24,572 nucleotides of DNA from a virus (taxonomy: Duplodnaviria; Caudoviricetes). The notes beneath the pieces were generated by a model. That model was not told where the DNA came from, searched no databases, and worked only from the letters and a program-made list of their open reading frames with translations. Shown piece after piece: positions 906-24,572 of this stretch. The translations under genes and the position numbers were made by a program. The stretch lies in IMG/VR virus record IMGVR_UViG_3300035397_000041, positions 1 through 24,572 of that record, one strand, 5' to 3'. Position 1 is the stretch's first letter. Each line of letters begins with the position of its first letter.

Positions 906-1271
906 CTAATTCAATAACTTTTCGACATCTTCATTGGTGACTTCTTCACCTTGTATTATTTTTTTGGCCAACACAATAACATTATTCTTCAATTCAGGGT
1001 TTAATGTAAGTAGTGTTTTAAATGGTTCTTTATCAATAACTTGCTGAATCACTTGATATTCAAAAAACATATCATATAGTTCGACTGCTACAAATCCAAT
1101 TTGACCATCGTCATTAACTGAAAATAATGCTGATTTTACTTTATCTGGTTCGTCGCCAGTATAACCAACCGCTTCTGCAATTTTCTTATACTCAGGATTA
1201 TTCAGTTCGTAGTTGAGGAAATCCTCTAGTACTTGACGGAGTTCGTTCTTGATTTTTTCTGTTTTTTTCAT
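906..1271 (-). CDS. Hypothetical protein (121 aa)
   Basis: Clean ORF tightly packed in operon. Confidence 0.75.
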   Translation of the reverse strand: MKKTEKIKNELRQVLEDFLNYELNNPEYKKIAEAVGYTGDEPDKVKSALFSVNDDGQIGFVAVELYDMFFEYQVIQQVIDKEPFKTLLTLNPELKNNVIVLAKKIIQGEEVTNEDVEKLLN

Positions 1272-1512
1272 TGTTGTGTACTATTTCTTCATATGTTAAT
1301 AAAAGTTCATCGACAATAGGATCACGGAAATTTTCTGTCAACGATATTACAGCACATCTCTCAAGAATCTCTGCAGCCATGACTAAAGCTTCCAATCCAC
1401 TTTTGCCTTCTATAATTCTTTGTCTTAAATCCCCGCAAAAGATCATTTTAGATCCTTTACCAATCCTAGTAAATAACATTTCAATTTCAAAATCATCCAG
1501 GTTCTGAGCCTC
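1198..1512 (-). CDS. phoH: PhoH-like ATPase, exon 2
   Basis: Starts GAG GCT CAG AAC (EAQN) at 1512, continues LDDFEIEMLFTRIGKGSKMIFCGDLRQ (PhoH TRIG and GD..Q motifs); true 3' end may be near 1281. Confidence 0.9.
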   Translation of the reverse strand, partial: EAQNLDDFEIEMLFTRIGKGSKMIFCGDLRQRIIEGKSGLEALVMAAEILERCAVISLTENFRDPIVDELLLTYEEIVHNNEKNRKNQERTPSSTRGFPQLRTE

Positions 1513-2496
1513 CGCTCATATCATATATTTCTATATGGACTGACTATATCTTAATTAATTCAATCTTATAACCAAGTAATTTGGCTTTTTTAGTGTTTAG
1601 TTTATGACCTAAGAATTTTTCAGCCTTTTGTTTAGAGGTAAAAGTAGTAACAATATTATCTTTGGTTAAAGTAACTTTATACTGATCACTTCTACCACAA
1701 ATCTGAGAATCTAGTTTATCGGTCTTTTTAAATGACCATCTAAATCCACATGATGATTTACTTCTACCCTTTGCACATTCTCCTATGGTACCTTTAGTTG
1801 TTCCATAATATTTATTAGCTTCAACTAATGAATCCCATGAACGAATGTACGTACCATCTAATTCATACTGAAACACATGTTTTTTATGTGCATCAATACT
1901 ACGACTTCTGCCTCTTACATCTTTATATACACCCTTACCACCACTATCAGTATTAACTAACGAGAAACCCCAGCTTTTAAATTGAGAAATCCAGTATTGT
2001 TCTATTAATTCCCAATCTTCTGTTTCGTCTAATAGTTCAATTATTGGAACCTGACCAGTTTCCAATACCACTGATTTAATCCAATTACACTTATGAGACA
2101 TTTTATTCTTAGAATCCCATATATGTTGAGATAATCTTTGGTTAAGAGTTCCTGAAGTAACTCCAATGTATCTTACTTCTTTTGTGGTTGGATGCGATAA
2201 ACTATACACTTTCATAACTATAATTTTATATAATTATAGTTAAATTTTGAATTAATTCCCCCCGTTTCGAGCACAAAATATGCCCTACTCTACTAAGTTA
2301 CCTCTCGGCCTGTTCGATAGTCGATGAACTCACATCCATATGGATGCTTCGCTGCGTCGGTTGTCCAATCCTAAATCTTTTTACTATACCTTTGGAGTTA
2401 CCCATTGCCACTAATCATGTTACCATATTAGTTTAGTAAGTTAGGCTATAAGGAGTTTCCCGCAATTAGAGGGGTTTAATGTCGACAAGGCTATTT
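1513..2496 (-). ncRNA. Group I intron in phoH (984 nt)
   Basis: P1 GUCGAU/GUCGAC with U-G at splice site; P10 GAGGCU/AGCCUU; AAUUGCGGGAAACUCC; P7 GACUA/UAGUC with S = AAGAUAUAGUC; 11-bp P8 (2247-2257/1553-1563); P9 CAUAUA-GAAA-UAUAUG; terminal G at 1513; splicing restores IIIVDEAQN. Confidence 0.95.
1544..2215 (-). CDS. Intron-encoded GIY-YIG homing endonuclease with NUMOD1-type DNA-binding domain
   Basis: KVYSL...RYIGVT...QRLSQH, E..WI, LVN; C-terminal VFQYELDGTYIRSWDS...GFRWSF; lies in P8 loop, stop inside S element. Confidence 0.88.
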   Translation of the reverse strand: MKVYSLSHPTTKEVRYIGVTSGTLNQRLSQHIWDSKNKMSHKCNWIKSVVLETGQVPIIELLDETEDWELIEQYWISQFKSWGFSLVNTDSGGKGVYKDVRGRSRSIDAHKKHVFQYELDGTYIRSWDSLVEANKYYGTTKGTIGECAKGRSKSSCGFRWSFKKTDKLDSQICGRSDQYKVTLTKDNIVTTFTSKQKAEKFLGHKLNTKKAKLLGYKIELIKI

Positions 2497-2934
2497 ATCG
2501 ACAATAATTATCGAGTTTAAGAACGTTCTACCTTGAAGAAATGATAGCGGTACTATCTCTATTGTATTGTCTTTCATTAGAGAATCCAATTCTTCTTTAC
2601 CTCTATCAAGAAATTGTAACATGTTATCGTAGATAGGCTGTAGCCATGGATTAAACTTCTCTTGAATATCGCCTGGCAGAAATCCAACATTATGATCCTT
2701 TCTCATTACTGTTGCCCTGGTTATTACTATTCGCTGAGTATCAGACTGTTTGACTTTAAATAGATTTAATTGCTCCAGGGCGTAACAAACTGCTAGATGC
2801 GTTTTTCCTGTTCCTGCACGTCCACTCAACACTGTGAGTGTCTTACTGTTAATTACTTTTTTAGCTGCAGCTTGTTCTTCAGTTAGATGTTCGTTGAACT
2901 TCTTGATTGGAGATTTCAATACCCGATTTGCCAT
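2497..2934 (-). CDS. phoH: PhoH-like ATPase, exon 1
   Basis: Walker A GRAGTGKT, GFLPGD, LQGRTF, ends IIIVD at 2497. Confidence 0.92.
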
Positions 2935-3213: not shown

Positions 3214-3404
3214 AGTAGATTATACAATATGTAATCATCATCTTCCTCTACAGATAGTATTTCAACAGGACCGAATCCCAATCTGTTATTTTTGATATTA
3301 AATAAGACCTGATCGTGTGCAAACTCTTTATCAGATTCGTATACTAATACACTGTCCACTATATCAGTGGTAATACTTTTAAATGTTACTTTATAAGGAA
3401 TCAT
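3210..3404 (-). CDS. Hypothetical protein (64 aa)
   Basis: ATGA overlaps on both sides. Confidence 0.7.
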   Translation of the reverse strand: MIPYKVTFKSITTDIVDSVLVYESDKEFAHDQVLFNIKNNRLGFGPVEILSVEEDDDYILYNLL

Positions 3405-4510
3405 TTTAACTTCATTTCCAGTAATATGTCATTTACCAAATCAGTAGATACATGAGATGGTAAGGAACTAGCTGCAAACTTAGCATCTAAAGAGGCTAAT
3501 TTCTCTTCGGCCATATTCAATAAATAATCATATTCAAACTCTCCAGTTCGAATCTTGAGTAGAAATTCTCTGTCAGGGCGTACTACATTCAACATACCGG
3601 TGTCTGCCAGTTCAATACCCATATTTAGAAGCCTCATACAATGCATAAGATTCTTAGAATCGTAACCTTTTCCATGTTCCTGGTTCGTAGCGTATCTTAC
3701 CGGATTTCTATTGGTTACCCAAGTTTGATAATTGTTATATTCCTTACAATGAGTAGTATATCCGTCCTGATTGAAATGGATAATTCCCATACAACCAACT
3801 TTAGCTACAGCTTCTGGAATAGACGTTAATCGTAGTTCGTTAGATGAGAGGTCAGTATTCACAATTCCTCTAGGCATCCAGTTGTTGATTATTTCTAAAT
3901 CTTCAGGAATAAAACATCTATGCTGAGCAAATCTTTTATTATACAAAGCATATGATGTGGGGAAGTTGGCTACCTTAGCTAACCCAACATTTGCCTGATC
4001 GATATGGCATACCTGTAGAAGTTCTGATAACGGAGATACTCGTTCATTACCATGGTAGAAATAACAAAAATCTATTGGAGTTTTCCGTACTGTACATGGA
4101 TTTACGATCATCTTCTTTTGACCACGAGCTTTTTGAATCTGGGCTGCTGCATATCCACCAAGACTATTTCTACATGCTTTAGTAAGAAATTTATCTCTGT
4201 GAATTAATAGAATATCAGCTTTAGAATTCTTACTTACTATTTTACCCTCTGGAGCGAACATTATCTCTAATATATTAGGATTAGCAGTGGCTGCAAGAGA
4301 TAAAAATCGTGCTATCTCATAATGGACTTCATCGTTTGTATCATCGTTGATTTGTTTAGGAGCGCCGATCTTTAAGTATTCTGATAGCGGTAAATTAAAT
4401 ATACCTCTAGTGTCGGTATCTGATGACGGTAGATTTAACCCGTACATATGCGAACCAGCAACTACAGTTAAAATTCCATAGTCGCTGGTTTTTAATTGTT
4501 CTAAATTCAT
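3401..4510 (-). CDS. Pol-beta superfamily nucleotidyltransferase (RlaP/YcgL-like)
   Basis: GSHMYG...SDTDTRG catalytic motif, NPNILE, KNLMHCMRLL, LLKIRTGE. Confidence 0.85.
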   Translation of the reverse strand: MNLEQLKTSDYGILTVVAGSHMYGLNLPSSDTDTRGIFNLPLSEYLKIGAPKQINDDTNDEVHYEIARFLSLAATANPNILEIMFAPEGKIVSKNSKADILLIHRDKFLTKACRNSLGGYAAAQIQKARGQKKMIVNPCTVRKTPIDFCYFYHGNERVSPLSELLQVCHIDQANVGLAKVANFPTSYALYNKRFAQHRCFIPEDLEIINNWMPRGIVNTDLSSNELRLTSIPEAVAKVGCMGIIHFNQDGYTTHCKEYNNYQTWVTNRNPVRYATNQEHGKGYDSKNLMHCMRLLNMGIELADTGMLNVVRPDREFLLKIRTGEFEYDYLLNMAEEKLASLDAKFAASSLPSHVSTDLVNDILLEMKLK

Positions 4511-5781
4511 ACTGAATACATTATCATTGAATTAGTAACTTGTTCGTACATTATAAAGTATCTGGTTCCGGAGGATCCTAATTTAAATCCATGGAACAAC
4601 GAAGTACAGTCTCTATCACGCTCGAGATTAGTATCAAATATATGTTTATAACCTTCTTGATTAATATTACCCTTAGTAAATCTTAAGAACATATTAGATT
4701 CCCATAAAGCAATACTATAGTTGGGAGAAAAAGCCACAACCCTATCAGGAAATTTATTACCCTTACGACTTTCTTTACCATGATTTTTATGTAAATCTAA
4801 CACTCCACTAAAAATTATAGCTTTACATTTATCTGATGATTTGATTCTCCTCTCTATAGCTGTCATATCTTCAACAATACTTAAAGGTCTAACAAAAGAC
4901 ATATCGATAGGAGGAGTATTAGCATCTTGTTGATACAGTATAAGCTTCTTGTTCAGATCAGCTATCTTATTATTTAGTTCATCAATTACCGATTGATCGG
5001 CGGGTTGTAGTGCTTTGATTGAGAGATCAGCTATATTGGCTTCTAATTGAGCTATAGCTTTTTCTCTTTTATTTAATCGTCGATATAATAATGAATTGTG
5101 TTCATCATTAACTTGAGTAGATAAATCAACCCACTGACCAATAGTAATCATATTTGCAGTAAGAGCGGATTGAAGACATTTCGTAACACGCTTAAAAATA
5201 ATAGTCCTGGTTTTAAAATCTGGAAAATATGTTAGATCTTTAACTAATTTTCCTAAAGAGATATTATGTTTAATCGCCAGTTCAATAGCAGTTAAAATCT
5301 TAGCAGATAAGTGTACACTAGATTTTCTAGTTGCTTCTCTATATGATCTTTTTAATGTTCTAGATGCTGTTGCATATTCATCAAGTTCTTCAGTGATTGC
5401 TGTAGTTAATCCAGTGTATCCTTTTGTGAATAACTCCTCGATTTTCATATCACACCAAATATCGAATTCTTCACTCATCCATCGAGAAAATACCATTCTT
5501 AACTTTGGATGAATCCAGGTACCGCCGTTTGGTCCTGATTTGGTAACTATCAGATCCTCAACTGTTATAGTATTGTCCTCATTTTGCGGACAATTAACAG
5601 CACCCATATCAATGAGTTTTTGAGCCCTTGGCACTAAAGTTCTATTCTTAAAACTATCGAACGTTGATCGAGATTTACCAGCAGATTGATAAATCTCAGT
5701 TGCATTGATAAACAAATTACCATCAAAAGCAACGTCACACGAGAAATCACTTCCTGTATATTTATATTTCTGTATTTCCAT
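4507..5781 (-). CDS. KilA-N domain protein with coiled coil and unknown C-terminal domain
   Basis: FINATEI...GGTWIHPKLRMVFSRWMSEEFDIWCD is a KilA-N signature. Confidence 0.85.
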   Translation of the reverse strand: MEIQKYKYTGSDFSCDVAFDGNLFINATEIYQSAGKSRSTFDSFKNRTLVPRAQKLIDMGAVNCPQNEDNTITVEDLIVTKSGPNGGTWIHPKLRMVFSRWMSEEFDIWCDMKIEELFTKGYTGLTTAITEELDEYATASRTLKRSYREATRKSSVHLSAKILTAIELAIKHNISLGKLVKDLTYFPDFKTRTIIFKRVTKCLQSALTANMITIGQWVDLSTQVNDEHNSLLYRRLNKREKAIAQLEANIADLSIKALQPADQSVIDELNNKIADLNKKLILYQQDANTPPIDMSFVRPLSIVEDMTAIERRIKSSDKCKAIIFSGVLDLHKNHGKESRKGNKFPDRVVAFSPNYSIALWESNMFLRFTKGNINQEGYKHIFDTNLERDRDCTSLFHGFKLGSSGTRYFIMYEQVTNSMIMYSV

Positions 5782-5787
5782 ATTTTA

Positions 5788-5865
5788 TATGTCAATCCCG
5801 TAATCGGGAATAATGTTATTATGGAGTAGCTTCTGTATGTCAGGATTACCTACTTGTACACTCCA
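5788..5865 (-). promoter_or_regulatory. Structured leader upstream of KilA-N gene
   Basis: Stems UGGAGU/ACUCCA, AGG-UAAU-CCU and UCCCG-AUUA-CGGGA; UGACAUA occurs twice. Confidence 0.4.
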
Positions 5866-5876
5866 GAAAATTAAAT

Positions 5877-6554
5877 TTAAGCCCACAGTATAGGTGTTTT
5901 ACCCATCTTCATTAAGGCGCTATCACATTCAGAAAAACAAGCACTACCAGAGAACGGATTAGATCTGTTCAATGGAGATGGATGTCCAGATTTAATAATA
6001 ACATGACTAGTGTTGGATATCTGATCAGCATATGCATGAGCATTACTACCCCATAATAACCATACTACTTTATCTTTACTATTAATAGCACTTATTACCG
6101 CTTTTGTAAATTTGCTCCATAATGGAATATGACTTCCTGCTTTTCCTTTTATTACACTATGTGCGGTATTAATAAGAAGTACTCCTTGTTTAGCCCACTC
6201 GTATAGTGAAGGATGAGGCGTTTCGCCATATAGAGATTTAACTTCGTTTAAAATAGCACGTAGTGATGGAGATATTTTCGTCACTGCCGGTTCGTTCGGA
6301 ACACCATTACCAAACGCTAATCCATTAAATGAGTTATCATGATAAGGATCCTGACCTAACACACAGACCTTCAACGAGTTGTATGGCGTTTCTCTAAATG
6401 CCTGAAATAATAGACTACTTCCAGCCGGAGGTAATACATCAGGATTATCAAGACGCTCTTGTCTAAGACTGGTATTAATATCACTAATCAGACTAATTAG
6501 ATTTTCCTGACCAATTATATCAATCCAGTCTTGAGTAAAATACTTTGTTAACAT
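5877..6554 (-). CDS. ung: Uracil-DNA glycosylase, family 1
   Basis: LGQDPYH, GLAF, WAKQGVLLIN, LLWG, HPSPL. Confidence 0.95.
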   Translation of the reverse strand: MLTKYFTQDWIDIIGQENLISLISDINTSLRQERLDNPDVLPPAGSSLLFQAFRETPYNSLKVCVLGQDPYHDNSFNGLAFGNGVPNEPAVTKISPSLRAILNEVKSLYGETPHPSLYEWAKQGVLLINTAHSVIKGKAGSHIPLWSKFTKAVISAINSKDKVVWLLWGSNAHAYADQISNTSHVIIKSGHPSPLNRSNPFSGSACFSECDSALMKMGKTPILWA

Positions 6555-6562
6555 AGTTCGGA

Positions 6563-6970
6563 TTAAAGACTTTCTAAGATATTATCCAAGACACTCTCAA
6601 TGTCTAATAGACCTCTATCAGTAGATGGTCGTATGTTTAACTTTCGGTTTTTAATTACCTTACGAGCCTTTGTAATATTATTCTTCAGTAACTGGATAAT
6701 ATGTTTTTCATGGAACTGTTTACATGAAACTATAAAGTTCTCGGTATCAGATTTGTTACTAAAATAATGTCCACAATCTGTATATTGATGTACACTACTT
6801 ACATCAACTTCTTCGATACTACCAAATCCACTATAATTTGCACTATACCCACCAAACCCATTTTTTGTTATTACGTAACTGACCCAGTACCATTCTCCAA
6901 TCGGAACAGGAGCACCATTGGCCAACAAAACTCCATCCACATACGTACCAAAGTAATCATCAATAACCAT
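6563..6970 (-). CDS. Hypothetical protein (135 aa)
   Basis: Clean ORF in operon. Confidence 0.7.
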   Translation of the reverse strand: MVIDDYFGTYVDGVLLANGAPVPIGEWYWVSYVITKNGFGGYSANYSGFGSIEEVDVSSVHQYTDCGHYFSNKSDTENFIVSCKQFHEKHIIQLLKNNITKARKVIKNRKLNIRPSTDRGLLDIESVLDNILESL

Positions 6971-6971
6971 A

Positions 6972-7622
6972 TTATTTATATATTATTGTAGTCACCTCAT
7001 AAGGAAACACTTCCCTAAAAATAGGAGCTTCAGGAATATTAACTTCAGTGAAATCTTTTTGATCGTCAATATTCACATCTTGGAAAAAGTTTGTTTTTAA
7101 AAACTTACCAGTGGATTTTTCTTTGACAACTAATTCAACTTCAACAATATTAAATTCTCCGCCAACAACTTCAGACTTAATATGATCGTAATCAGCATGA
7201 GTATCATTTACTATTCGCATTCTATCGGCGAAACTCAAATTATTCATTTCGTATAAATTTAAAAGATTAATACATTTATCTAACCATCCTTTCTGAAGAC
7301 AATGAATACCTTTTACAAAGGATCGATTAAGTGATCTCACCACCATATTATCATCATCTAAATGCCATATAAAACCCTCAGCTTCTAGAAATGGCCTTTT
7401 TTCTTCGTAATTACAAAAGATGATTCTATTTCTAGGTATGTCAAGACTATCTGTAACTGAGAATAGATCTTCATTACCCCAATTATCATACATTTTATCT
7501 TCGCTAGCACACCTAGCAGTGCACACCCATACTTCAACTCCTAATTGAATCAAAGAATAAGCCAAACACTGCGCTTCTAAGGTACTTAACGTATGATCAA
7601 AATCAAAACTAACTCTCTTCAT
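6972..7622 (-). CDS. HAD-superfamily phosphatase-like domain fused to a second ~91-aa unit starting at ATG 7247
   Basis: SFDFDHTL (DxDxT), VWVCTAR, WHLDDD; second unit MNNLSF...EVFPYEVTTIIYK. Confidence 0.75.
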   Translation of the reverse strand: MKRVSFDFDHTLSTLEAQCLAYSLIQLGVEVWVCTARCASEDKMYDNWGNEDLFSVTDSLDIPRNRIIFCNYEEKRPFLEAEGFIWHLDDDNMVVRSLNRSFVKGIHCLQKGWLDKCINLLNLYEMNNLSFADRMRIVNDTHADYDHIKSEVVGGEFNIVEVELVVKEKSTGKFLKTNFFQDVNIDDQKDFTEVNIPEAPIFREVFPYEVTTIIYK

Positions 7623-7632
7623 AATAAAAAAT

Positions 7633-7737
7633 TAATATTACACCGCAGGGTTCCTGGTTTACCTATCTTGTACTATGACCCCTTTTCCAGTTAACTAGGC
7701 CTAACAGCTGAACTTATCGAGTTTTGATGTAATACTA
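7633..7737 (-). ncRNA. Candidate structured RNA, unassigned
   Basis: 12-bp closing stem UAGUAUUACAUC/GGUGUAAUAUUA with two G-U pairs; internal stems; fills nearly the whole intergenic gap. Confidence 0.45.
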
Positions 7738-7740
7738 AAA

Positions 7741-8328
7741 CTACATACCCTCAAGTCTACGTTTGCTAATCACTTGCATGAATTCACCAGCAGACATAGG
7801 GGTAAAATTATTACCATCTACTCCAACATCGTGTTGAAATACACTTTGACCAGGTATCGGTTTCTTACTATGACAATGACCAAAGGCTTGATAAGCACCT
7901 TTATGACTATTATTCCAAGTAATAGATGGGAAATGATTCAATTCAATATCAATATAATCACTAGCATCCTCATGCATTGTAAATATTCTAATATCTAATC
8001 GAGTATGTACCTCCTCAAAGATGTTTTCTTTATCATTAGCCTTAATGACATCGTCATCGTGATTTCCGCGTATTAAGATTATTCTTCCATTTAGACGTTT
8101 ACGTACGTCTATAATCTGTTGAATAGAACAGTTCATTGCAAAGTCTCCAACCACAAAGACTATTCCAGTCTTGGGTACCTTTGCATCCCAGTTAGCCACA
8201 ATAGTATCGTTCATCTCTTGAACCGATTTAAAGGGCCTATCGCAGTACTTTATAATATTTTTATGCCAGAAGTGAGTATCTGACGTAAAGAATATCTCAT
8301 GAGTACCTAATTTATAGTACTTGCGCAT
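7741..8328 (-). CDS. Calcineurin-like metallophosphoesterase
   Basis: SDTHF, VGDF, RGNHD, NHFP, GHCH, DVGVD. Confidence 0.92.
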   Translation of the reverse strand: MRKYYKLGTHEIFFTSDTHFWHKNIIKYCDRPFKSVQEMNDTIVANWDAKVPKTGIVFVVGDFAMNCSIQQIIDVRKRLNGRIILIRGNHDDDVIKANDKENIFEEVHTRLDIRIFTMHEDASDYIDIELNHFPSITWNNSHKGAYQAFGHCHSKKPIPGQSVFQHDVGVDGNNFTPMSAGEFMQVISKRRLEGM

Positions 8329-8710
8329 AGTTCAATAATGATTGTTTTATATCATACACTTCCCGCATAGATTGTATATGCTGATCTCTCTTACAAAGAG
8401 CCTGTAGAGATTCTATTGCAGATTCTACAGTATTTTGTATTGATAGAAGATGAAGTTTTAAAGATGTTTCAAAAGCTTGGTTTGCTAATTGTTCAGTTGT
8501 ATAAAAATAACCCAAATAATATGGAGATAGTTTTCTACCTTTATAACCAGGGACATGTGTAATCGTTAAATCATCGCCTAAGATAATTTCCACAGGCTTT
8601 CGAAACGAAGTACACTTTAATGATTTACTTGAATACTTATAGGTATATGTCCAGAGATGTTCTCCAGGATTAACTATCCTATAAGTATTATCTACATATC
8701 TACTATTCAT
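8312..8710 (-). CDS. Hypothetical protein; paralog of 8714-9097
   Basis: Shared PG..LW...Y..S and aromatic-TT..L pattern. Confidence 0.7.
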   Translation of the reverse strand: MNSRYVDNTYRIVNPGEHLWTYTYKYSSKSLKCTSFRKPVEIILGDDLTITHVPGYKGRKLSPYYLGYFYTTEQLANQAFETSLKLHLLSIQNTVESAIESLQALCKRDQHIQSMREVYDIKQSLLNYAQVL

Positions 8711-8713
8711 GTT

Positions 8714-9097
8714 TTACTTAATCGATTCAGCTGATGAATAAAAAGAATCTATTAACTCTTTATGTTCTGGTGTAGTGGTAACTGATGAACACCTGTTAAT
8801 GGCTCTAGATGCCACATTAGCAGCATCTTTAACAATATACGATATTCTTCTAAGATGACCAGCCACCAATATTCTATAGTAATCCCAACATAAGTCAGAT
8901 GTAGTGAATAAGTGACACCATTGTACAATATTACCTTTTGCATCTACTGGTTTACCACTATCATCTACAGTAAGTGATGATGGTACCAAATTAGAATTAA
9001 CTCTAGTACCACTTCGCGAAACTTCATAATGACATCCCCACAGGACATCTCCAGGTTGTAATGAAGTACTAACAATTCCGTTAACTATTCTATTCAT
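8714..9097 (-). CDS. Hypothetical protein (start revised to ATG 9097)
   Basis: MNRIVNG... start avoids a long overlap with pnk and aligns with the paralog N-terminus. Confidence 0.7.
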   Translation of the reverse strand: MNRIVNGIVSTSLQPGDVLWGCHYEVSRSGTRVNSNLVPSSLTVDDSGKPVDAKGNIVQWCHLFTTSDLCWDYYRILVAGHLRRISYIVKDAANVASRAINRCSSVTTTPEHKELIDSFYSSAESIK

Positions 9098-9546
9098 CGT
9101 TGTGTATGTAACGTTTGTAGAAATGTCGAATAGTGGATTCCCCAACCGGATTGGGCCGTAAACTGTCCCGTTTAATGCACTCATCTAAGTCAGCTTCTAT
9201 TAATTTGAACTCTATTTCAGCCTCACACTCAACAGCTATTGCTGTTAAAGCAGCTATTGTTGCTAGATTAAGGTTAGTAGAATCCGATACAACATTGTAC
9301 CCTAATTTAAGGGCTGAACGAGTATTATCGAATTCCCATTGAGATATCAATTTTTCCTGAGATGGTATCCAGTATTTTCCACGCATATTACGTAGATCAT
9401 CGCGGTTAACTCTGACATAAGAAGTATCTTCTTCGATCAATTTCCTAGCGTAGGTGGTCTTTCCTGATGCAGGATTACGGTATCCCCTGTAGCACCAACA
9501 ACTTAGGCTTAGGGGATACTATTTCTTTGTTTAAATCGTTTATCAT
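9090..9546 (-). pseudogene. Polynucleotide kinase (AAA_33/T4 Pnk kinase-like) interrupted in Walker A by 7 nt; pseudogene or recoded
   Basis: ATG 9546 (TAATG overlap with ligase stop) gives ...LLVLQGIP*; after TAAT the +1 frame reads PASGKTTYARK...RVNRDDLR...DSTNL...CIKRDSLR; removing 7 nt gives a 149-aa protein with GIPASGKT. Confidence 0.85.
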
Positions 9547-10871
9547 TAATTATAAGTTTCAATATCTATTTTATTAGTGTCAAGATCTCTTGTCTCTTTA
9601 TCTAAGAAACGAAAACTTTTCTGCTTAAATGCCTCAGCCAGAGGACCTTCGACCTTCACCACAACTCCTTCTTCTGGTACTTTATTAACACATAAATAAC
9701 AGTCTTTCTCATTGTAAAGCTCTTTGATTTTAGCTAGTAAAAGATCTCTCCATTCATCGGTATCTTGACCATCCACATAAGGGACAAATTCCCAAGCATA
9801 GCCATAGAATTTCTCGATTACCGGAGTTAATCCACTAAGTTTACACCAGTCTTGTACCTGTTTAGCACTGAATTCGAATACTTGACCTTCGTTATTAGTG
9901 AAGGTGATTCGATACACATAGATCTTGTGTTCTCCGGGTTTACATCCATAATCCCATGACCCCTGAATGGAACCTCCACCAGGTAGATACCCAACAATTT
10001 CATAGTACAAAGTCATACCATTTAGCAAGTAAGATTTCAATTCTTCGCCAGCAATAGTCCAGATATCTTCTGAATAATAACCGCTTGGATTGGGATTTAA
10101 ATCTCCGTTTTTAATCACTTTACGAGACGAATTGATGTAATCATACTCGTAAGTAAAAATCCTAGCTAATTTTAATCGTTTCAGTATTCTTTCAAACCAT
10201 GTCAACTTACGTTTACATAGAACTTTGCTGCTAATACCACTTGTACCATGAACCTTATAGGTAATAGATATTAAACTATTCGGGGTAATCTTATGTAGAT
10301 TTCTTCCTAGTTGGGCAGTGTCGTAATGGAATCTAAATTGATTTTCAATTATTTTTGACTCCACAGGTTTACGACCTTTACCTTTATTACCTGATCCAGG
10401 CTTTCCAGGAGTACGAGTTCCTTTTGGGATATACTTTCTACAAATTTCAATACCGTATAATTCATCAAACTCATCTCCAAGCTCAACCATATCAGTTATT
10501 TCACTAATACCTCTTTTAGCTGCTATATACTTCAGACTTTCAATAGGAATAAATAAACCATTAGACTGGTGACCTCTGAATTTAATACACTTAATACGTC
10601 CATTCTCTTCAAAATAACCTTTTTTGGTATTATCGGAATTGGTTGTAGTGTCTCTAAATAGATTATTGGATGATAGAAATTCATTATCTAGCTGAGTCTC
10701 AACTGGAAAGTACAATCCAATTGTTCCGATTTCAGTGTCTTTGCCTATAATAACATGACACCCACAGATCATGGTACCCACGACATTGTCACAGGTAGCC
10801 AATTCTATCTTATTTTTAATTTCAACTACTGTAGCACAGTAATTAATGTTCTTCGGTTCTTTATGTTTCAT
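9546..10871 (-). CDS. RNA ligase (Rnl2/DRB0094-like) with N-terminal OB-like domain
   Basis: Motif I TYKVHGTS, YYEIVG, EEGVVVK, FKQKS; N-terminal IKFRGHQSNGL. Confidence 0.85.
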   Translation of the reverse strand: MKHKEPKNINYCATVVEIKNKIELATCDNVVGTMICGCHVIIGKDTEIGTIGLYFPVETQLDNEFLSSNNLFRDTTTNSDNTKKGYFEENGRIKCIKFRGHQSNGLFIPIESLKYIAAKRGISEITDMVELGDEFDELYGIEICRKYIPKGTRTPGKPGSGNKGKGRKPVESKIIENQFRFHYDTAQLGRNLHKITPNSLISITYKVHGTSGISSKVLCKRKLTWFERILKRLKLARIFTYEYDYINSSRKVIKNGDLNPNPSGYYSEDIWTIAGEELKSYLLNGMTLYYEIVGYLPGGGSIQGSWDYGCKPGEHKIYVYRITFTNNEGQVFEFSAKQVQDWCKLSGLTPVIEKFYGYAWEFVPYVDGQDTDEWRDLLLAKIKELYNEKDCYLCVNKVPEEGVVVKVEGPLAEAFKQKSFRFLDKETRDLDTNKIDIETYN

Positions 10872-11126
10872 CTTCTTTAATAAAATTTAAAGCTTCGACT
10901 AGACCGGCTTCTAAAGCCTCTTCGTATGAAAAATTTATCATTTGGACCACCGGTTAAGTACTTAATACAAGTACTTTTAGAAAGATCAATTATAGAATAC
11001 ATAAACCCATATCCAAATTGATTAACAGTAATACTTACTTACCCAAGAATGACCATACTTTTTATAGTAGGTTAGTAGTCTAGCTGTGGTTAATGCTTCA
11101 GCTTTTTCAATAGATAATCGTGTCAT
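10861..11126 (-). pseudogene. Small phage protein broken by two frameshifts
   Basis: MTRLSIEK...HSWVS, then +1 frame ITVNQFGYGFMYSII...GGPNDKF, then +1 again SYEEALEAGLVEALNFIKEDET*; the YEEALEAGL..AL tail is familiar from Bacteroidota phage proteins. Confidence 0.65.
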
Positions 11127-11368
11127 TTTACAAAATGGGGTTGTCCTGGCCTTGCTTTCCAGTATAAATGTTTCCAGCCTGCCGGAATATAGTGACTAAT
11201 ACCTTTAGCATCGAGTACTCTATGTCCTCCGTTGGTTGGATTAACACTTACATAACAAGGATCAGAAATTAGTAATTGAGTACCGTTTTACCAATCATAT
11301 ACTCTATATTCTTCGGTTGTTACCTCAAAGAATGTATAACTACCATTATTGATTAATTCTATACTCAT
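11123..11368 (-). pseudogene. Small phage protein (81 codons) with in-frame TAA at codon 27
   Basis: MSIELINNGSYTFFEVTTEEYRVYDW*NGTQLLISDP...GGHRVLDAKGISHYIPAGWKHLYWKARPGQPHFVK*; ATGA overlaps at both ends. Confidence 0.75.
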
Positions 11369-11717: not shown

Positions 11718-12059
11718 TTAAAATTGAATAGATAATTGGTTACTACTGGATGATTGTTTTTTACCTATATTTACAGGAATACTACCAGCTACTCTACTGA
11801 TATTGTAGATTGGACGTAATTCATTGATGTATTGTTGTTCAGTAGAAAGCAATTCATTACATCCACAGAATTCCAAAACTCTAAATACAAATGAATCTAT
11901 TCCGATTTTATCCACTGCCCGTTGAAGTTCCCATGAATGATGAGTTCCCTTGTTTAACATTCTAACATGACTTTTAAATCTTCTATTAATATCAGAAGAT
12001 GACCCAACATAACAATCACCTGTAATATTGTTTATAATAGCATACACACCTGATTTCAT
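11718..12059 (-). CDS. Free-standing GIY-YIG endonuclease, catalytic domain only
   Basis: KSGVYAI...YVGSS...RRFKSH...EQQYI...YNI; ends just after a NUMOD3-like GKKQS. Confidence 0.8.
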   Translation of the reverse strand: MKSGVYAIINNITGDCYVGSSSDINRRFKSHVRMLNKGTHHSWELQRAVDKIGIDSFVFRVLEFCGCNELLSTEQQYINELRPIYNISRVAGSIPVNIGKKQSSSSNQLSIQF

Positions 12060-16310: not shown

Positions 16311-16547
16311 CTAAGTTCCTTCACATTGGTCTGGGTACTCTGTTGGAATAAAGAAACTCTTTACTTTTAGTATTCGGTGCGGGGGATAATGCTCAAACAC
16401 AACATTGTTATTGTGTCTGTACCCTCCAACAACTATAGCTGATGCATGTTCTCTTACTTTTTCAGCCGAATCAACTTTATAAGAGAAGACTCTGCCATCA
16501 TCTAGGTATACCCTGACAATAAACTCCTTTTTATCCACAGGCTCCAT
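16311..16547 (-). CDS. Hypothetical protein (78 aa; start revised to ATG 16547)
   Basis: MEPVDKKEFIVRVYLDDGRVFSY...EHYPPHRILKVK. Confidence 0.7.
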   Translation of the reverse strand: MEPVDKKEFIVRVYLDDGRVFSYKVDSAEKVREHASAIVVGGYRHNNNVVFEHYPPHRILKVKSFFIPTEYPDQCEGT

Positions 16548-18096
16548 AACCACATTCTTTACATTGTTTACATCCACCTTCCATATGCATCTCAGATCCA
16601 CAGTTAGGGCATGCTGATACACCACCATCAGTATCCGGTATGTATCTTTTCAATTGTCTTGCAATAACTTTACTGATATGAACTACAGACCCCTCAGACT
16701 TGTTTAGCTGTTCAACAACGAATTGTATAGCAGCACCATGCCTTAAAGCAGTAGAAATCAGTCTCATAACAAATCCCCATTCAGGAGTCTCAAACTTAGA
16801 TGTGATATCTTCGATCAACAAATGCCCAGATGTGTCTAGTAAGTTATACACACCGCTTTTCTGTTTCCGTAAAATACCTGTCTCTATCTTTGAAGATAGT
16901 ATTGTATCTCCTCGTTTAAAGGCCATAGCCTCGAATGGTTTACCATCGAATAGTCCAACTAGTACAATATATTTTTCACCAGAAATCGTTGGTTGAAAAA
17001 TATCACTCTTCAGATCCTTAGGCCTTTTAGGAGCATCTCGTTGTTCAAACTTACTTGAATTGCTTCCTAATGAATTTAATACACCGATACGACTACCATC
17101 ACGATAAATGGTTATACCTTTACAGCCTGATTTCCAGGCTTTCATGTAAAGATCTCCAACTACTTTCTCTGATGTAGTTGCAGGTAGATTTGTTGTATTA
17201 CTAATTGAATGATCAATATACTTTTGTATTTGACCTATCATTTTGATTTTAACAACAGGATCGATATCTGCAGAGGATGACTTAGCATACGGAGATTCTG
17301 CAACTAGTGCGAATATCTCGTCATCTGGTAGGTTTTCAGGTATTATTTTAGGGTATTTGATTCCTATCCATTCCTTGAAATAAGGATGAAATACTGGAAA
17401 TTCTTCCCACGAGTCACCTTGCTCATCTACAAAATCAATCTTTGAATGAGTATCATTAGGATTAACTTTACGACTGCGTTTGTATACAGGCATAAATACT
17501 GGCTCTATCCCGCTAGTCTGATTATTCATAATAATAGACATTGTACCAACTGGTGGAATCGTCAGCAATGCAATATTTCTACGAGGAATTCCATCTTTAC
17601 CGATACGAGCTAAGAAAGGATTACCGCGTTCTAGAGATGCATTAAATACAGGAAATGTACCGCGTTTTACAGCCAGCTCATGAGAAGCTTCGTAGACTTT
17701 TTCTGCAAATTGTTTGTGAATTCCGATAAGAAAATCAGAGCTATACTCATTACCATACTGAATACCCAACATAGCTAACATATCTCCATGTCCTATGATA
17801 GATATACCAGCACGTCTACCCTTTTCAGTGTTAATGCGAATATTAGTCCACATATCTAACTCAGCCCATTTAGTGTCAATATTTTCTGGATCAGCTTTGA
17901 TTTTATCAATTATTTGATTGATCTTTTTGATTTCAAGATCAATAATGTTATCCATCATATGAGTAACCATTGTGGCCATCTCAGCAAATAAATCATTATC
18001 AAACCTAGCAGAACTTTGAAATCTATCAATGACCATTTTAACTAAGTTAACTGATATCAATCGACAACTATCATAAGGACTTAAAGGAATTTCTCC
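16531..18096 (-). CDS. nrdJ: Class II (B12-dependent) ribonucleotide reductase, exon 2
   Basis: GEIPLSPYDSCRL, RRNIALLTIPPVGT, TSGIEP, KGITIYRDGSR, C-terminal CPNC..GGCKQCKECG zinc ribbon. Confidence 0.92.
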   Translation of the reverse strand, partial: GEIPLSPYDSCRLISVNLVKMVIDRFQSSARFDNDLFAEMATMVTHMMDNIIDLEIKKINQIIDKIKADPENIDTKWAELDMWTNIRINTEKGRRAGISIIGHGDMLAMLGIQYGNEYSSDFLIGIHKQFAEKVYEASHELAVKRGTFPVFNASLERGNPFLARIGKDGIPRRNIALLTIPPVGTMSIIMNNQTSGIEPVFMPVYKRSRKVNPNDTHSKIDFVDEQGDSWEEFPVFHPYFKEWIGIKYPKIIPENLPDDEIFALVAESPYAKSSSADIDPVVKIKMIGQIQKYIDHSISNTTNLPATTSEKVVGDLYMKAWKSGCKGITIYRDGSRIGVLNSLGSNSSKFEQRDAPKRPKDLKSDIFQPTISGEKYIVLVGLFDGKPFEAMAFKRGDTILSSKIETGILRKQKSGVYNLLDTSGHLLIEDITSKFETPEWGFVMRLISTALRHGAAIQFVVEQLNKSEGSVVHISKVIARQLKRYIPDTDGGVSACPNCGSEMHMEGGCKQCKECGYGACG

Positions 18097-18945
18097 CAAT
18101 TATGTTAATACCACAACTGTGGTATGGTAGTGTATTTCTAACTACCTCTCTATGTTACCATAGAAGTTCAGACTATGTCATCACCCACATTATTGTGGGG
18201 CTTTTCGTTCAATATTTTATATTGAAATGAGGGTGTTATGAAAGAACGAATACCGGACATAAATTTCTGTACATCTTTACTACGAAGTCGTAGATAATAA
18301 TACTTTCCATTCTTGTTAATATTCCATTCCAAATCCAGACAATCCTTTAAAGCCTTCTTAAGCAATAACAAATCACCATACGATAACCTCTTCAAATTCA
18401 AAGTTACATCGTATGCCGGTTTAATCATACCAATCGAAGGTCTGAAATCTGTCTTTAGAGATCCATCAGACATATATAAAAACGATAACGCTTCATAATC
18501 CAATAACTTAAGCGCATGGTTATCAATACTTTTATACTTATCTACATAGATTCGATCTCTCATTGTGGTGAAAAACGGATGAGACTTGGTACCTAGTCGT
18601 AGTTGATTTTGTCTAGACTCATCCTTAACCACTGATACAACTGTAGTCGATGTAATATTCTCTAGAATATCTCTACACAGTACAATATAGTCTAGGTTCT
18701 TCTCCACCATATTCATAATAAATGAGTGTTCCTTTCCTTGAGGGTACACTCCACCATCTCCCATTATCATAAAGGAGACAAGCTTAGTTAGCTCTTTCTT
18801 ATCGGTGATTTTTCTCATTTTGTAAAATATTATAGTCGTTACACAACCCATAACGGGTTAGCACGGCGTTTTCCTAAACCAGGATGTTCGCCGTTTTTAG
18901 AAAAGTTTGCAATATCCATTACTGAATATTGGTGCAATGAAATTT
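18097..18945 (-). ncRNA. Group I intron in nrdJ (849 nt)
   Basis: Exon ends UGU, P1 GUGU/GCAC with U-G; AAAACGGCGAAC/AACGCCGUG; P3 UUUUCU/AGAAAA; P7 GACUA/UAGUC; P9 CUAUG-GUAA-CAUAG plus two more 3' stems; terminal G 18097; splicing restores TNPCGEIPL. Confidence 0.95.
18168..18818 (-). CDS. Intron-encoded two-motif LAGLIDADG homing endonuclease
   Basis: LVSFMIMGDGG and ALSFLYMSDGS helices; likely start ATG 18818 after the R element; stop just past P7'. Confidence 0.85.
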   Translation of the reverse strand: MRKITDKKELTKLVSFMIMGDGGVYPQGKEHSFIMNMVEKNLDYIVLCRDILENITSTTVVSVVKDESRQNQLRLGTKSHPFFTTMRDRIYVDKYKSIDNHALKLLDYEALSFLYMSDGSLKTDFRPSIGMIKPAYDVTLNLKRLSYGDLLLLKKALKDCLDLEWNINKNGKYYYLRLRSKDVQKFMSGIRSFITPSFQYKILNEKPHNNVGDDIV

Positions 18946-19896
18946 ACACGGGTTGGTGGACACTGTTGTAAACCCACTTTTCCAGTAGCAATCCGGAACA
19001 GATTCACGAATAATAGTGTCCCAAAATAATGCACCAGGTTCAGCAGATAACCAGTTAGCTTTAATTAAAGCATTCCATACAGGTTTAGCTTTAACTCTAC
19101 GAGCATAGACAACTTTAGAATTTATAATCAACTTAGATAAAGACCCGTCTATAGGAAGAGTGGCCTCGTCAATAAGATCGGTATCTGTCTGAACAGGAAA
19201 TACTTGAGTATAATAACCATCAGCATCTACAGCCTGCATAAACTTATCTGATACTCTAACAGAAACATTTGCACCAGTAACTTTACCGGTATCCAGTTTC
19301 ATGTTTATAAACTCCAATACATCAGGATGATTAACGTGTATTGACAGCATAAGTGCGCCCCGACGACCGTCCTGCGCAACTTCTCTGGAACTATTACTGA
19401 ATCTTTCACAGAATGATACTACACCAGAACTAGTTCCAGCACTGTTGCTTACTGAGGTAGTTTTTGGTCGAAGATGACTAACATCTGTACCAACACCACC
19501 TCTACGTTTAGCAATTTGTACTATCTCTTGGTCAGTTTTTAAAATTGATCCATAACTATCTTCATCGTTACCAGATATCACAAAACAGTTACCTAATGAT
19601 GTCACCGAATACGGATTGGCTATACCATACAAAGATGACCCACCTGGACTAATTATTTGTTCAGATAAAACCTTATAATACTGATCTTCTGTATAAGTAG
19701 TATCTCCATAGGCGAGATCCACAGAATGAATCTCTTTTGCAATTGCACGGAATCTATCCAAAGGGGAAGACTCCACAAACTCGCCTTCTTTGTTTTTTAA
19801 ACAATACTTGTTCATCCATACTTTAGTGGCTAATTCATCTCCACCAAAGAATTTTAAACAATTTTTCTTTACTTCTTCACCTGTAAATACAGTCAT
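18946..19896 (-). CDS. nrdJ: Class II ribonucleotide reductase, exon 1
   Basis: KVWMNKY, LGNCFV, KRRGGVG, QDGRRGALM, GANVSVRV, AEPG, STNPC; spliced product about 838 aa. Confidence 0.92.
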
Positions 19897-19991
19897 TTTC
19901 AACTGATTAACTAAATTATAAATAAATTTTTATTACCATTTATATTAGTTAAATTTATCTTAAAAACTGAGATAGTAAAGCTCAATTAATG

Positions 19992-23981: not shown

Positions 23982-24572
23982 CATTTATAATTTCGAGTTA
24001 AGACTTTACTAACTCTTCCTAAAGTTTCCTCTAGGGATCGGACTATATCTTACTATTTAGTTGAAAGACCAGGTAAAACCACCATGGCTCTTTCTTTTTC
24101 CATTACAACAATTACTAATTTTTGATTTTAATAACCCCAATTCTGATGCTGCTATCTGTCCGGATTCCCATGTTTTTATAAATATTCCATCCATTGTAGA
24201 TTGAATAACTTTAGTATTAACATTAGGTTGCCTTTTAGATTTAGCAATACCTATATTTGTATCATAGGCATATCTCCATTGGTATCCATACGCTTTATAT
24301 CCTTTCTGTAGTCTCGCAGCCCTATGAATAATAGCATCATTGCCATTTACATAACTAGCGGCAGAAACCACACTATCAAAATATCTGATAAAATTACCTT
24401 CTAATGTAAACTGAAATACAGCTCTACGTTCAACAGTAATATAATCATCTAAGGATGTACGAATATTCAAAAGATTAACTCCTAGGGATGTTAGATATTC
24501 AATCCACCACACTTCCCACCATTCTGGAGATAAACTTACTTCATCAATTAGTATTATTGTCGGGAGTACTCC
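23982..24572 (-). ncRNA. Group I intron, 3' portion (5' end outside window)
   Basis: S element AAGAUAUAGUC (24041-24051), P9 CCUAGAG-GAAA-CUUUAGG, GAGUUA/UAACUC stem, terminal G 23982 directly before AAU CAU GAU. Confidence 0.85.
24057..24572 (-). CDS. Intron-encoded homing endonuclease (GIY-YIG-type C-part plus two NUMOD1 repeats), 5'-partial
   Basis: Frame open to window end: GVLPTIILIDEV...WEVWWIEYLTSLGVNLLN parallels the phoH-intron enzyme; VFQFTLEGNFIR..GYQWRY and VIQSTMDGIFIK..GFTWSF. Confidence 0.8.
   Translation of the reverse strand, partial: GVLPTIILIDEVSLSPEWWEVWWIEYLTSLGVNLLNIRTSLDDYITVERRAVFQFTLEGNFIRYFDSVVSAASYVNGNDAIIHRAARLQKGYKAYGYQWRYAYDTNIGIAKSKRQPNVNTKVIQSTMDGIFIKTWESGQIAASELGLLKSKISNCCNGKRKSHGGFTWSFN

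Follow-up and report, generated by a model that had tools for sequence, protein, structure and literature searches.

The kinase gene of the phage contig analyzed here is interrupted, within the codons for its Walker A motif, by a 7-nt gap that opens with a stop codon, and junctions of the same design recur in other phages. We regard the kinase junction as a real, conserved, and selected recoding cassette, and we consider some form of ribosomal hop across it highly probable from its sequence pattern. Our fuller reading, to which we assign a probability of about three in four, is that a hairpin would drive bypassing of the stop-led gap, and that the gap lies in a replaced 5′ end, as part of a cassette of endonuclease origin that would give immunity from re-cutting. 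The leader, the hairpin, the CCG, TAA, and CCT triplets, and the intact downstream frame are seen in the sequence itself.

An interrupted kinase gene in an RNA-repair neighborhood

The window is the whole of a 24.6-kb record (IMGVR_UViG_3300035397_000041; 24,572 nt), an AT-rich phage contig whose main genes all lie on the minus strand and whose sequence occurs in microbial-mat metagenomes. Its kinase gene encodes a stand-alone polynucleotide kinase (PNK) domain directly behind an RNA ligase gene (9546..10871, minus strand; 441 aa; PHROG RNA ligase, E 3e-63), and the ligase TAA and the kinase ATG share one base. From the ATG at 9546 (minus strand), 23 codons lead to the G-I-P of Walker A, the last of them being CCG (9480-9478), the putative take-off codon, which is followed immediately by TAA (9477-9475). 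This first frame (ORF1, 9475..9546, minus strand) comprises an added leader of about 12 codons, the beta-1 strand, and the G-I-P. Beyond the TAA come a single T (9474) and the landing triplet CCT (9473-9471), which complete the 7-nt gap (9471..9477, minus strand), and the frame then stays open as far as 9090 (127 residues), matching Pfam AAA_33 (E 2.9e-15) and PHROG polynucleotide kinase (E 5.9e-25). Counted from the resume codon GCA, ORF2 (9090..9470, minus strand) holds the remaining PNK kinase domain in 126 codons plus a stop and has no start codon that keeps Walker A. An intact homolog (L001), 86% identical to the window, lacks the 7 nt, reads straight through, and aligns to the T4 PNK and Pnkp1 structures; since this alignment runs across the break, ORF1 and ORF2 are both needed for one P-loop.

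The wider RNA-repair neighborhood (3401-10871, minus strand) includes an RlaP nucleotidyltransferase and a metallophosphoesterase, and a 216-aa ORF (6972-7622) that starts with a DxDxT-like motif may be the separate phosphatase. An 81-codon ORF (11123-11368, minus strand) resembling phrog_27874 (E 2.6e-4) contains an in-frame TAA (11290-11288). A contig of another study (X2 record 16) covers this TAA without difference, and no homolog of the ORF was found among the fetched loci; it is either a pseudogene or a second recoding site.

The insert in other assemblies and in relatives

The initial annotation, which had proposed a hop from CCG to CCU, described the site accurately: the CCG-UAA-U-CCU insert, the AGGGG that lies 3 nt before the CCG (9488-9484), and a downstream frame free of further lesions are all present. 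It had also weighed a sequencing artifact and a pseudogene peculiar to this genome. The insert is present in contigs, rather than raw reads, of two other studies, one of which (X2 record 12) spans 9344-9532 without a difference and the other (X3 record 18) 9345-9616 without a gap, and it occurs in other phages as well. Bridging contigs and relatives together rule out an assembly error.

The insert of one relative (L073) is identical to that of the window. The closest relative with the same insert (locus L004), which belongs to a complete genome of 175 kb (G001), has CCG TAA T CCA at the same place, at 75% amino-acid identity to the window and a dS of about 2.8. The G001 terminase matches 84 GenBank records at 24-28% identity, and because those among the matches listed are crAss-like phages, the host of the window phage is likely, by inference, a member of the Bacteroidota.

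Other relatives lack the gap. In a strain about 96% identical to the window (X4; labelled RNA but probably DNA), 47 other letters replace 9453-9542, a difference of 43 letters that equals 12 codons plus 7 nt; the 5′ end is replaced, with no excision of the 7 nt, and we read it as probably a plain short 5′ end. In L001 (2938-3003), the leader, the 5′ arm of the stem, and the CCG are kept, the 7 nt are gone, and the stem is weakened by silent changes, which looks like a precise, revertant-like loss of the gap. Three further intact kinases (L110, L130, and L181) have leaders of about 25 residues that end in a P-K-L-L motif like that of the window; they are possibly old cassettes after gap loss.

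Reassignment of the stop codon was rejected, as a 7-nt gap shifts the frame and, read with table 11, the window ORFs terminate at each of the three stops; nor did tables 4 and 15 bring a clear gain on the coding strand for four gut loci. One 175-kb phage (L296) reads TGA as Trp in its kinase and has TAA at the take-off site.

Distribution among phage kinases

An unbiased survey of 233 sequences recovered 204 kinase 5′ ends, of which 191 were intact, 11 from six lineages had a stop at Walker A position 3, and 2 had other oddities. All six lineages combined a GGG glycine codon with a longer leader and an inverted repeat of their own. A pattern survey in DNA (R/Q/K-G-x-P/Q-stop-gap-G/A-S-G-K-S/T), which is blind to gaps longer than 23 nt and to other flanking residues, returned 67 viral loci: 55 were kinases by HMM, one was cut by a contig end, one belonged to the phage with TGA as Trp, and 10 were dropped as non-kinase matches. 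With the take-off codon left free and any stop allowed, 54 of 65 loci were kinases (11 were dropped), all with CCN or CAR, including two new ones with TAG. The non-GGG control scan gave 2 real matches among 19 loci (17 dropped), vs. 20 loci for the matching GGG form. An exact 16-mer scan yielded 1 real case among 11, and a scan of GTDB genomes with one pattern only yielded 1 among 50, a 153-kb MAG contig with the gut-phage junction. Two loci were excluded as non-elements: L196, with a single additional A in a run, and L089, which lacks the Gly.

By hand count, these searches amount to about 64 phage contigs, including the window, with 40 distinct junctions, all of which sit at the codon for Walker A position 3. 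Junction statistics below use 38 junctions unless stated otherwise. The patterns that yielded most junctions prescribe where the stop lies, GGG or GAGG, and G/A-S-G-K, the unbiased lineages numbering six; the junctions are not independent, such that p-values overstate; and the intact controls belong to the PNK clade only, whereas 23 of the 38 junctions fall in two other kinase clades without controls. Eight members tested were all AAA_33 kinases, two of them with a PNK phosphatase domain. No cultured isolate with the cassette was found by blastn of three cassettes or of the gut region. Regarding a second cassette in the same genomes, there was one pattern match in G001, and of the sites returned by a generic scan (4 in the window, 24 in G001) only the kinase site was recognized as a cassette. 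A scan for promoters and terminators stayed at chance level.

Gap lengths, take-off codons, and landing triplets

The gap measures 6 nt at 26 junctions, 5 nt at four, 7 nt at four, 9 nt at three, and 11 nt at one, and close relatives differ in frame (5 nt in L258, 6 nt in L259, and 9 nt in L242). Because gaps of all three frames occur in one architecture, readthrough or a +1 shift is not the general answer. Simple recoding that adds residues would have to be a +1 shift in the window, readthrough for 6 and 9 nt, and a −1 shift for 5 and 11 nt. Gaps of 5, 6, and 7 nt would each then yield two extra residues, and hairpins stimulate +1 shifts according to the parts of the literature covered. However, this explanation requires three mechanisms for one architecture, has no slippery site to act on (CCG to CGU is not cognate), and would insert three to four residues for gaps of 9 and 11 nt, into a loop where extra sense codons occur at none of the 193 element-free loci. 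We consider it extremely improbable.

A hop agrees better with the codons on either side of the gap. Across the 40 junctions, the stop directly after the take-off codon is TAA in 20, TGA in 18, and TAG in 2. [quoted passage not shown] Of the 19 non-cognate landing triplets, 18 have A as their last base and 14 could form a G-U pair with a UGG or UUG anticodon; five are ACA, which needs an A-G mismatch. In L242 (9 nt) and L290 (11 nt), the stretch from +3 to the landing site offers no acceptable triplet. The caveat of the initial annotation that the window codons are synonymous rather than identical has thereby become the rule of the family. At the take-off position, CCA is avoided (0/32 vs. 31/94 in intact genes) and CCG (20/32 vs. 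15/94) or CAG favored. Taken together, the landing and take-off bias is what would be left by a single U34 tRNA that exchanges a wobble pair for a firmer one at the third position. Some of the landing pattern could come from transition bias and from descent of the triplet from a duplicated Pro codon. Among the phage-encoded tRNAs of G001 and of the stretches covered of three other genomes (G002, G004, and G005), the Pro and Gln anticodons are UGG and UUG only, a weak indication as far as the host is concerned. Within L374 5248-12627 (G001), ARAGORN gives a tRNA with a CUA anticodon and three tRNAs with irregular anticodon loops.

The loose landing match is also accounted for by removal at the RNA level, in which an endonuclease would cut beside the hairpin and the phage RNA ligase would rejoin the mRNA minus 5-11 nt. 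If one cut fell behind base 2 of the take-off codon and the other just ahead of the final base of the landing triplet, every junction would yield Pro or Gln, and the neighboring gene encodes an RNA ligase. Such a process, however, has no need for an in-frame stop at the front of the gap, a near-cognate triplet at its end, or the avoidance of CCA; the gaps have no common ends, no room for a ribozyme, and no Rfam match; and many junctions lie in non-PNK kinases without an adjoining ligase. These features render excision very unlikely.

Selection speaks for a functional product. Downstream of the gap, dN/dS was 0.09-0.40 in all 20 chosen element pairs, over dS values up to about 2.8 (0.09 for the window ORF2 vs. 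L004), and downstream frames were intact wherever the flank allowed reading, such that the relatives exhibit both the conserved insert and the purifying selection that the initial annotation had proposed to look for. Together with the lack of a start codon in ORF2 that would keep the P-loop, and with the persistence of the cassette after endonuclease loss, this leaves scarcely any room for a defunct or nearly defunct gene that has hitchhiked with an endonuclease, or for two separate polypeptides, notwithstanding that phage PNK may be dispensable and that L001 appears reverted by loss of the gap.

A predicted hairpin before the take-off codon

The inverted repeat of the initial annotation (9511-9519/9480-9488; 9 bp, exact) forms the base of a predicted 40-nt hairpin (9480..9519, minus strand) that ends at base 1 of the take-off codon and would be the driver of the hop. 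The 5′ arm of this hairpin (9511..9519) belongs to the added leader, 27 nt downstream of the start codon's A, and the 3′ arm contains the SD-like AGGGG. The predicted energy is −20.8 kcal/mol (z −4.83), and none of 200 shuffles was as good. A strong hairpin is predicted in the 50 nt before take-off at 38 of 38 junctions (−16.7 to −30.8 kcal/mol), with a mean of −24.3 kcal/mol vs. −4.9 in 139 intact genes. The strongest hairpin among the intact controls (−20.6 kcal/mol) occurs in a GC-rich gene, and third place (−15.0) falls to the revertant-like L001, whose weakened stem has a z of −0.04 vs. −2.89 on matched regions.

The geometry of the hairpin is regular. Its 3′ arm ends at base 1 of the take-off codon in 26 junctions, one or two bases earlier in 11, and one base later in 1; positions −8 to −2 are paired in all 38, position −3 being G-C in 20, C-G in 13, and U-A in 5; and the arms differ among lineages and covary. 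The spacer from stem to landing triplet is 5-6 nt in 30 of 38, and in the window the hairpin ends 6 nt, and AGGGG 10 nt, before the landing triplet. In 27 of 37, the stem is preceded at 20-27 nt by the closest in-frame AUG, a distance that we infer would keep the initiation region free. Leaders have a median of 21 residues, vs. 10 in intact genes, and are uniform in length, with no sequence common to the lineages. Between the window and G001, the cassette is the best conserved 70-nt stretch (97% vs. a mean of 70% over 1240 windows), which can reflect either RNA constraint or recent transfer. A barrier hairpin downstream was not enriched (−6.0 vs. −7.4, p 0.07), and a small hairpin over the landing site is a consequence of the P-A-S-G codons.

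The role of a mask over the SD, which the initial annotation gave to this stem, is unlikely, as the ribosome must unwind the stem to reach the take-off codon, and it is the stem that is invariant and ends at a set distance from the landing triplet. This invariance and the 5-6 nt spacer are why we favor a refolding hairpin, the behavior of which would fit that of a mimic of the SD helix. The same hop might instead be driven by SD/anti-SD pairing at AGGGG, a compression like that of prfB, with the hairpin only masking or incidental. As at prfB, 3 nt lie between AGGGG and the P-site codon, the Gly codon is GGG in 6/6 unbiased lineages vs. 21/139 intact genes, and both real matches of the non-GGG scan read AGA GGT and so carry a GAGGU core. 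Yet stem strength would account just as well for G-rich 3′ arms, and the hairpin is universal and covarying. Moreover, the probable host belongs to the Bacteroidota, and Bacteroidia ribosomes sequester their anti-SD and shift at prfB without it, according to the portions covered of Naeem 2024 (PMC10798248), such that a duplex formed by mRNA only is favored. We therefore hold pairing with the anti-SD to be quite unlikely as the driver, although the two GAGGU cores make some contribution from an SD conceivable, and retain the refolding hairpin as the probable motor.

Association with homing endonucleases

An endonuclease domain lies within 700 nt upstream of 17 of the 38 junctions, vs. 2 of 99 intact lineages, and the difference holds in the PNK clade alone (8/15 vs. 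2/99). Four types are represented, namely LAGLIDADG, TnsA-like, GIY-YIG/NUMOD-like, and opposite-strand NUMOD3, and four of the upstream endonucleases have PHROG support. The other 21 junctions have no endonuclease Pfam match upstream, and none adjoins the cassette in the window or in L004. A GIY-YIG gene is located 2.2 kb upstream in the window, which is no evidence for a link because a gap-free relative (L003) has one there too. In the gut clade, a LAGLIDADG frame extends into the leader, stopping 20 nt short of take-off, and it is decayed in L236, L268, and L254. One near-identical cassette is found there on kinases with dS >1, interleaved with intact sisters, and on a quick tree the cassette label needed 14 changes, 8 of them forced by strong branches. 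A group I intron at the kinase was rejected: the gap has 7 nt, the ligase stop overlaps the kinase start so that there is no upstream exon, and there is no Rfam match.

Elsewhere in the window, phoH (1198-2934, minus strand) is split by a GIY-YIG/NUMOD1 ORF (1544-2215), with no Rfam match at gathering score; the flanks of this insert resemble, by short core motifs, what we take to be a group I intron. A ribonucleotide reductase gene (16531-19902, minus strand) is split by a LAGLIDADG ORF (18168-18851), again with no Rfam match and with flanks that are presumably group I-like. Further endonuclease-type ORFs are NUMOD/I-HmuI-like (24057-24512, minus strand) and a short GIY-YIG (11718-12059, minus strand).

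Proposed mechanism and significance

In the mechanism that we propose, a ribosome starting 27 nt before the stem would unwind it and arrive with Ile-Pro decoded and UAA in the A site, where termination would be slow; termination is known to be slow when Pro precedes the stop. The peptidyl-tRNA-Pro, weakly paired on a codon that ends in G, would detach, and the hairpin would re-form behind the ribosome and push it forward, like an SD helix placed too close, until the unpaired interval between stem and P site reaches about 5-6 bases. The tRNA would then re-pair on the first acceptable triplet, CCU in the window, and decoding would restart at GCA, giving a normal P-loop and a kinase of 149 aa; ribosomes that terminate at the TAA would release a 23-aa peptide. 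As to origin, a free-standing endonuclease may have cut the conserved Walker A DNA, its putative target, and copied in the cassette as protection from re-cutting; in the window, the endonuclease would since have been lost.

From the initial proposal, the hop itself is strengthened by the conserved insert, selection, gaps in three frames, and near-cognate landing, while two of its parts find no support, the masking of the SD and the gating of RNA-repair kinase synthesis. Nothing points to the latter, the link found being to homing endonucleases. A bolder extension, in which the frequency of hopping would also sense slow termination or tRNA damage and thereby adjust RNA repair, is improbable.

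More broadly, the cassette may be a portable "translational micro-intron," with which homing endonucleases of several folds invade Walker A codons and bring a new 5′ end, the hairpin serving as both piston and ruler in a push of 5-11 nt over the stop onto even a near-cognate triplet; we rate this generalization a little better than an even bet. If this holds, selfish nucleases would have a third means, besides group I introns and inteins, of residing in a conserved motif, catalytic motifs would be open to nucleases without any splicing, and in-frame stop hops would have natural examples. The cassette, of about 70 nt, fits one oligonucleotide pair. Its 40 natural variants, which span three stops, five gap lengths, cognate or near-cognate landing, and a covarying stem, bear on whether pairing of the exiting mRNA drives forward sliding and on how strict P-site re-pairing is. 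In practical terms, gene callers truncate or miss such kinases in gut crAss-like and environmental phages.

Comparison with known systems

Programmed bypassing is known from few systems, namely gene 60 and its homologs, Hau3, and the yeast mitochondrial byps, and the comparisons here draw on the covered portions of the papers cited. No report of the element in kinases was found in the literature searched, the scope of which excluded subscription journals; supplements, including the variant table of the preprint and Figure S10 of Antonov et al., could hold closer cases.

The cassette has a close likeness in the bypass of T4 gene 60, found within the MobA element (Manning & Atkins, bioRxiv 10.1101/2022.08.31.505936; Wills et al., bioRxiv 10.1101/2024.12.09.627546). 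In both, a stop directly follows take-off, the gap sits in an invariant motif, and a new leader peptide is present. A neighboring free-standing endonuclease of interchangeable type, the loss of which the cassette would survive, accompanies 17 of the 38 kinase junctions but neither the window nor L004. The gene 60 insert blocks nicking by MobA and outlasts the nuclease (10.1101/2022.08.31.505936), and the gut-clade arrangement resembles that of MobA, where the insert that prevents re-nicking outlives the loss or replacement of its nuclease. Pairing of the exiting mRNA has been proposed as the driver of gene 60 bypass (10.1101/2024.12.09.627546), and we ascribe the forward push in the kinases to the same force. 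The designs nevertheless differ. The gene 60 gap is about 50 nt, at topoisomerase Asp45/Gly46, vs. 5-11 nt in the AAA_33 kinases (7 nt in the window), and MobA split its host gene in two, whereas the kinase cassette replaced the 5′ end of its host gene. The 5′ stem-loop of gene 60 lies 9 nt away and is not conserved, unlike the single conserved hairpin that abuts the take-off codon here. The gene 60 take-off stem-loop holds the take-off codon in its 5′ side, as do folds at some kinase junctions (L245, L251, L249, and L303) but not in the window. Gene 60 has a mini-SD in the gap about 6 nt before landing, for which the kinase cassettes have no room and no counterpart, yet their 5-6 nt spacer from stem to landing resembles that spacing. 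Finally, take-off and landing codons of gene 60 homologs are always identical or wobble-matched (G/A, U/C) in the covered part of 10.1101/2022.08.31.505936, a rule that CCG/CCU in the window fails and CCG/CCA in L004 passes; with 19 of 38 triplets only near-cognate, the match is looser than in any gene 60 homolog reported there.

The terminase bypass of Streptomyces phage Hau3 (Antonov et al. 2023, PMC10732093) also has a short gap in a conserved junction (10 nt, and 7 nt in a prophage, as in the window), with a 5′ stem-loop and an SD proposed as signals, and its junction peptide was identified by MS in E. coli with UAA replacing UUA. The natural trigger of Hau3 is the rare sense codon UUA, a proposed developmental sensor, in contrast to the stop codon in a kinase of a crAss-like phage; bypass was seen in 3/100 genes, and the passages covered make no link to an endonuclease. 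The Magnusiomyces mitochondrial byps are likewise numerous and mobile inserts with tolerant landing, but they are 27-55 nt long and mitochondrial and follow an unused sense codon, not a stop.

With hairpin mimics of the SD duplex (PMC6321510, PMC3639245) and with prfB, the cassette would share a duplex by the E site and a slow stop in the A site that lead to a forward move; when 70S ribosomes stand at a stop, hairpins that refold upstream promote forward shifting, an effect that appeared in vitro only without RF2 (Huang 2018, PMC6321510). The prfB order of SD, 3 nt, P-site codon, and stop is reproduced in the window as AGGGG-ATA-CCG-TAA. Those systems move 1 nt, to an overlapping codon, the mimics in reporters and prfB with cognate +1 re-pairing, whereas the +1 triplet in the window is CGU, and the natural kinase genes would require moves of 5-11 nt (5, 6, 9, and 11 nt in relatives). 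A further parallel is the "stop hop" of synthetic constructs (Weiss et al. 1987, as cited in Atkins et al. 2016, PMC5009743). In the portion of that review covered, no natural in-frame stop hop is known; the probable hop in the kinases, by comparison, is natural, conserved, and putatively hairpin-assisted, and occurs out of frame as well.
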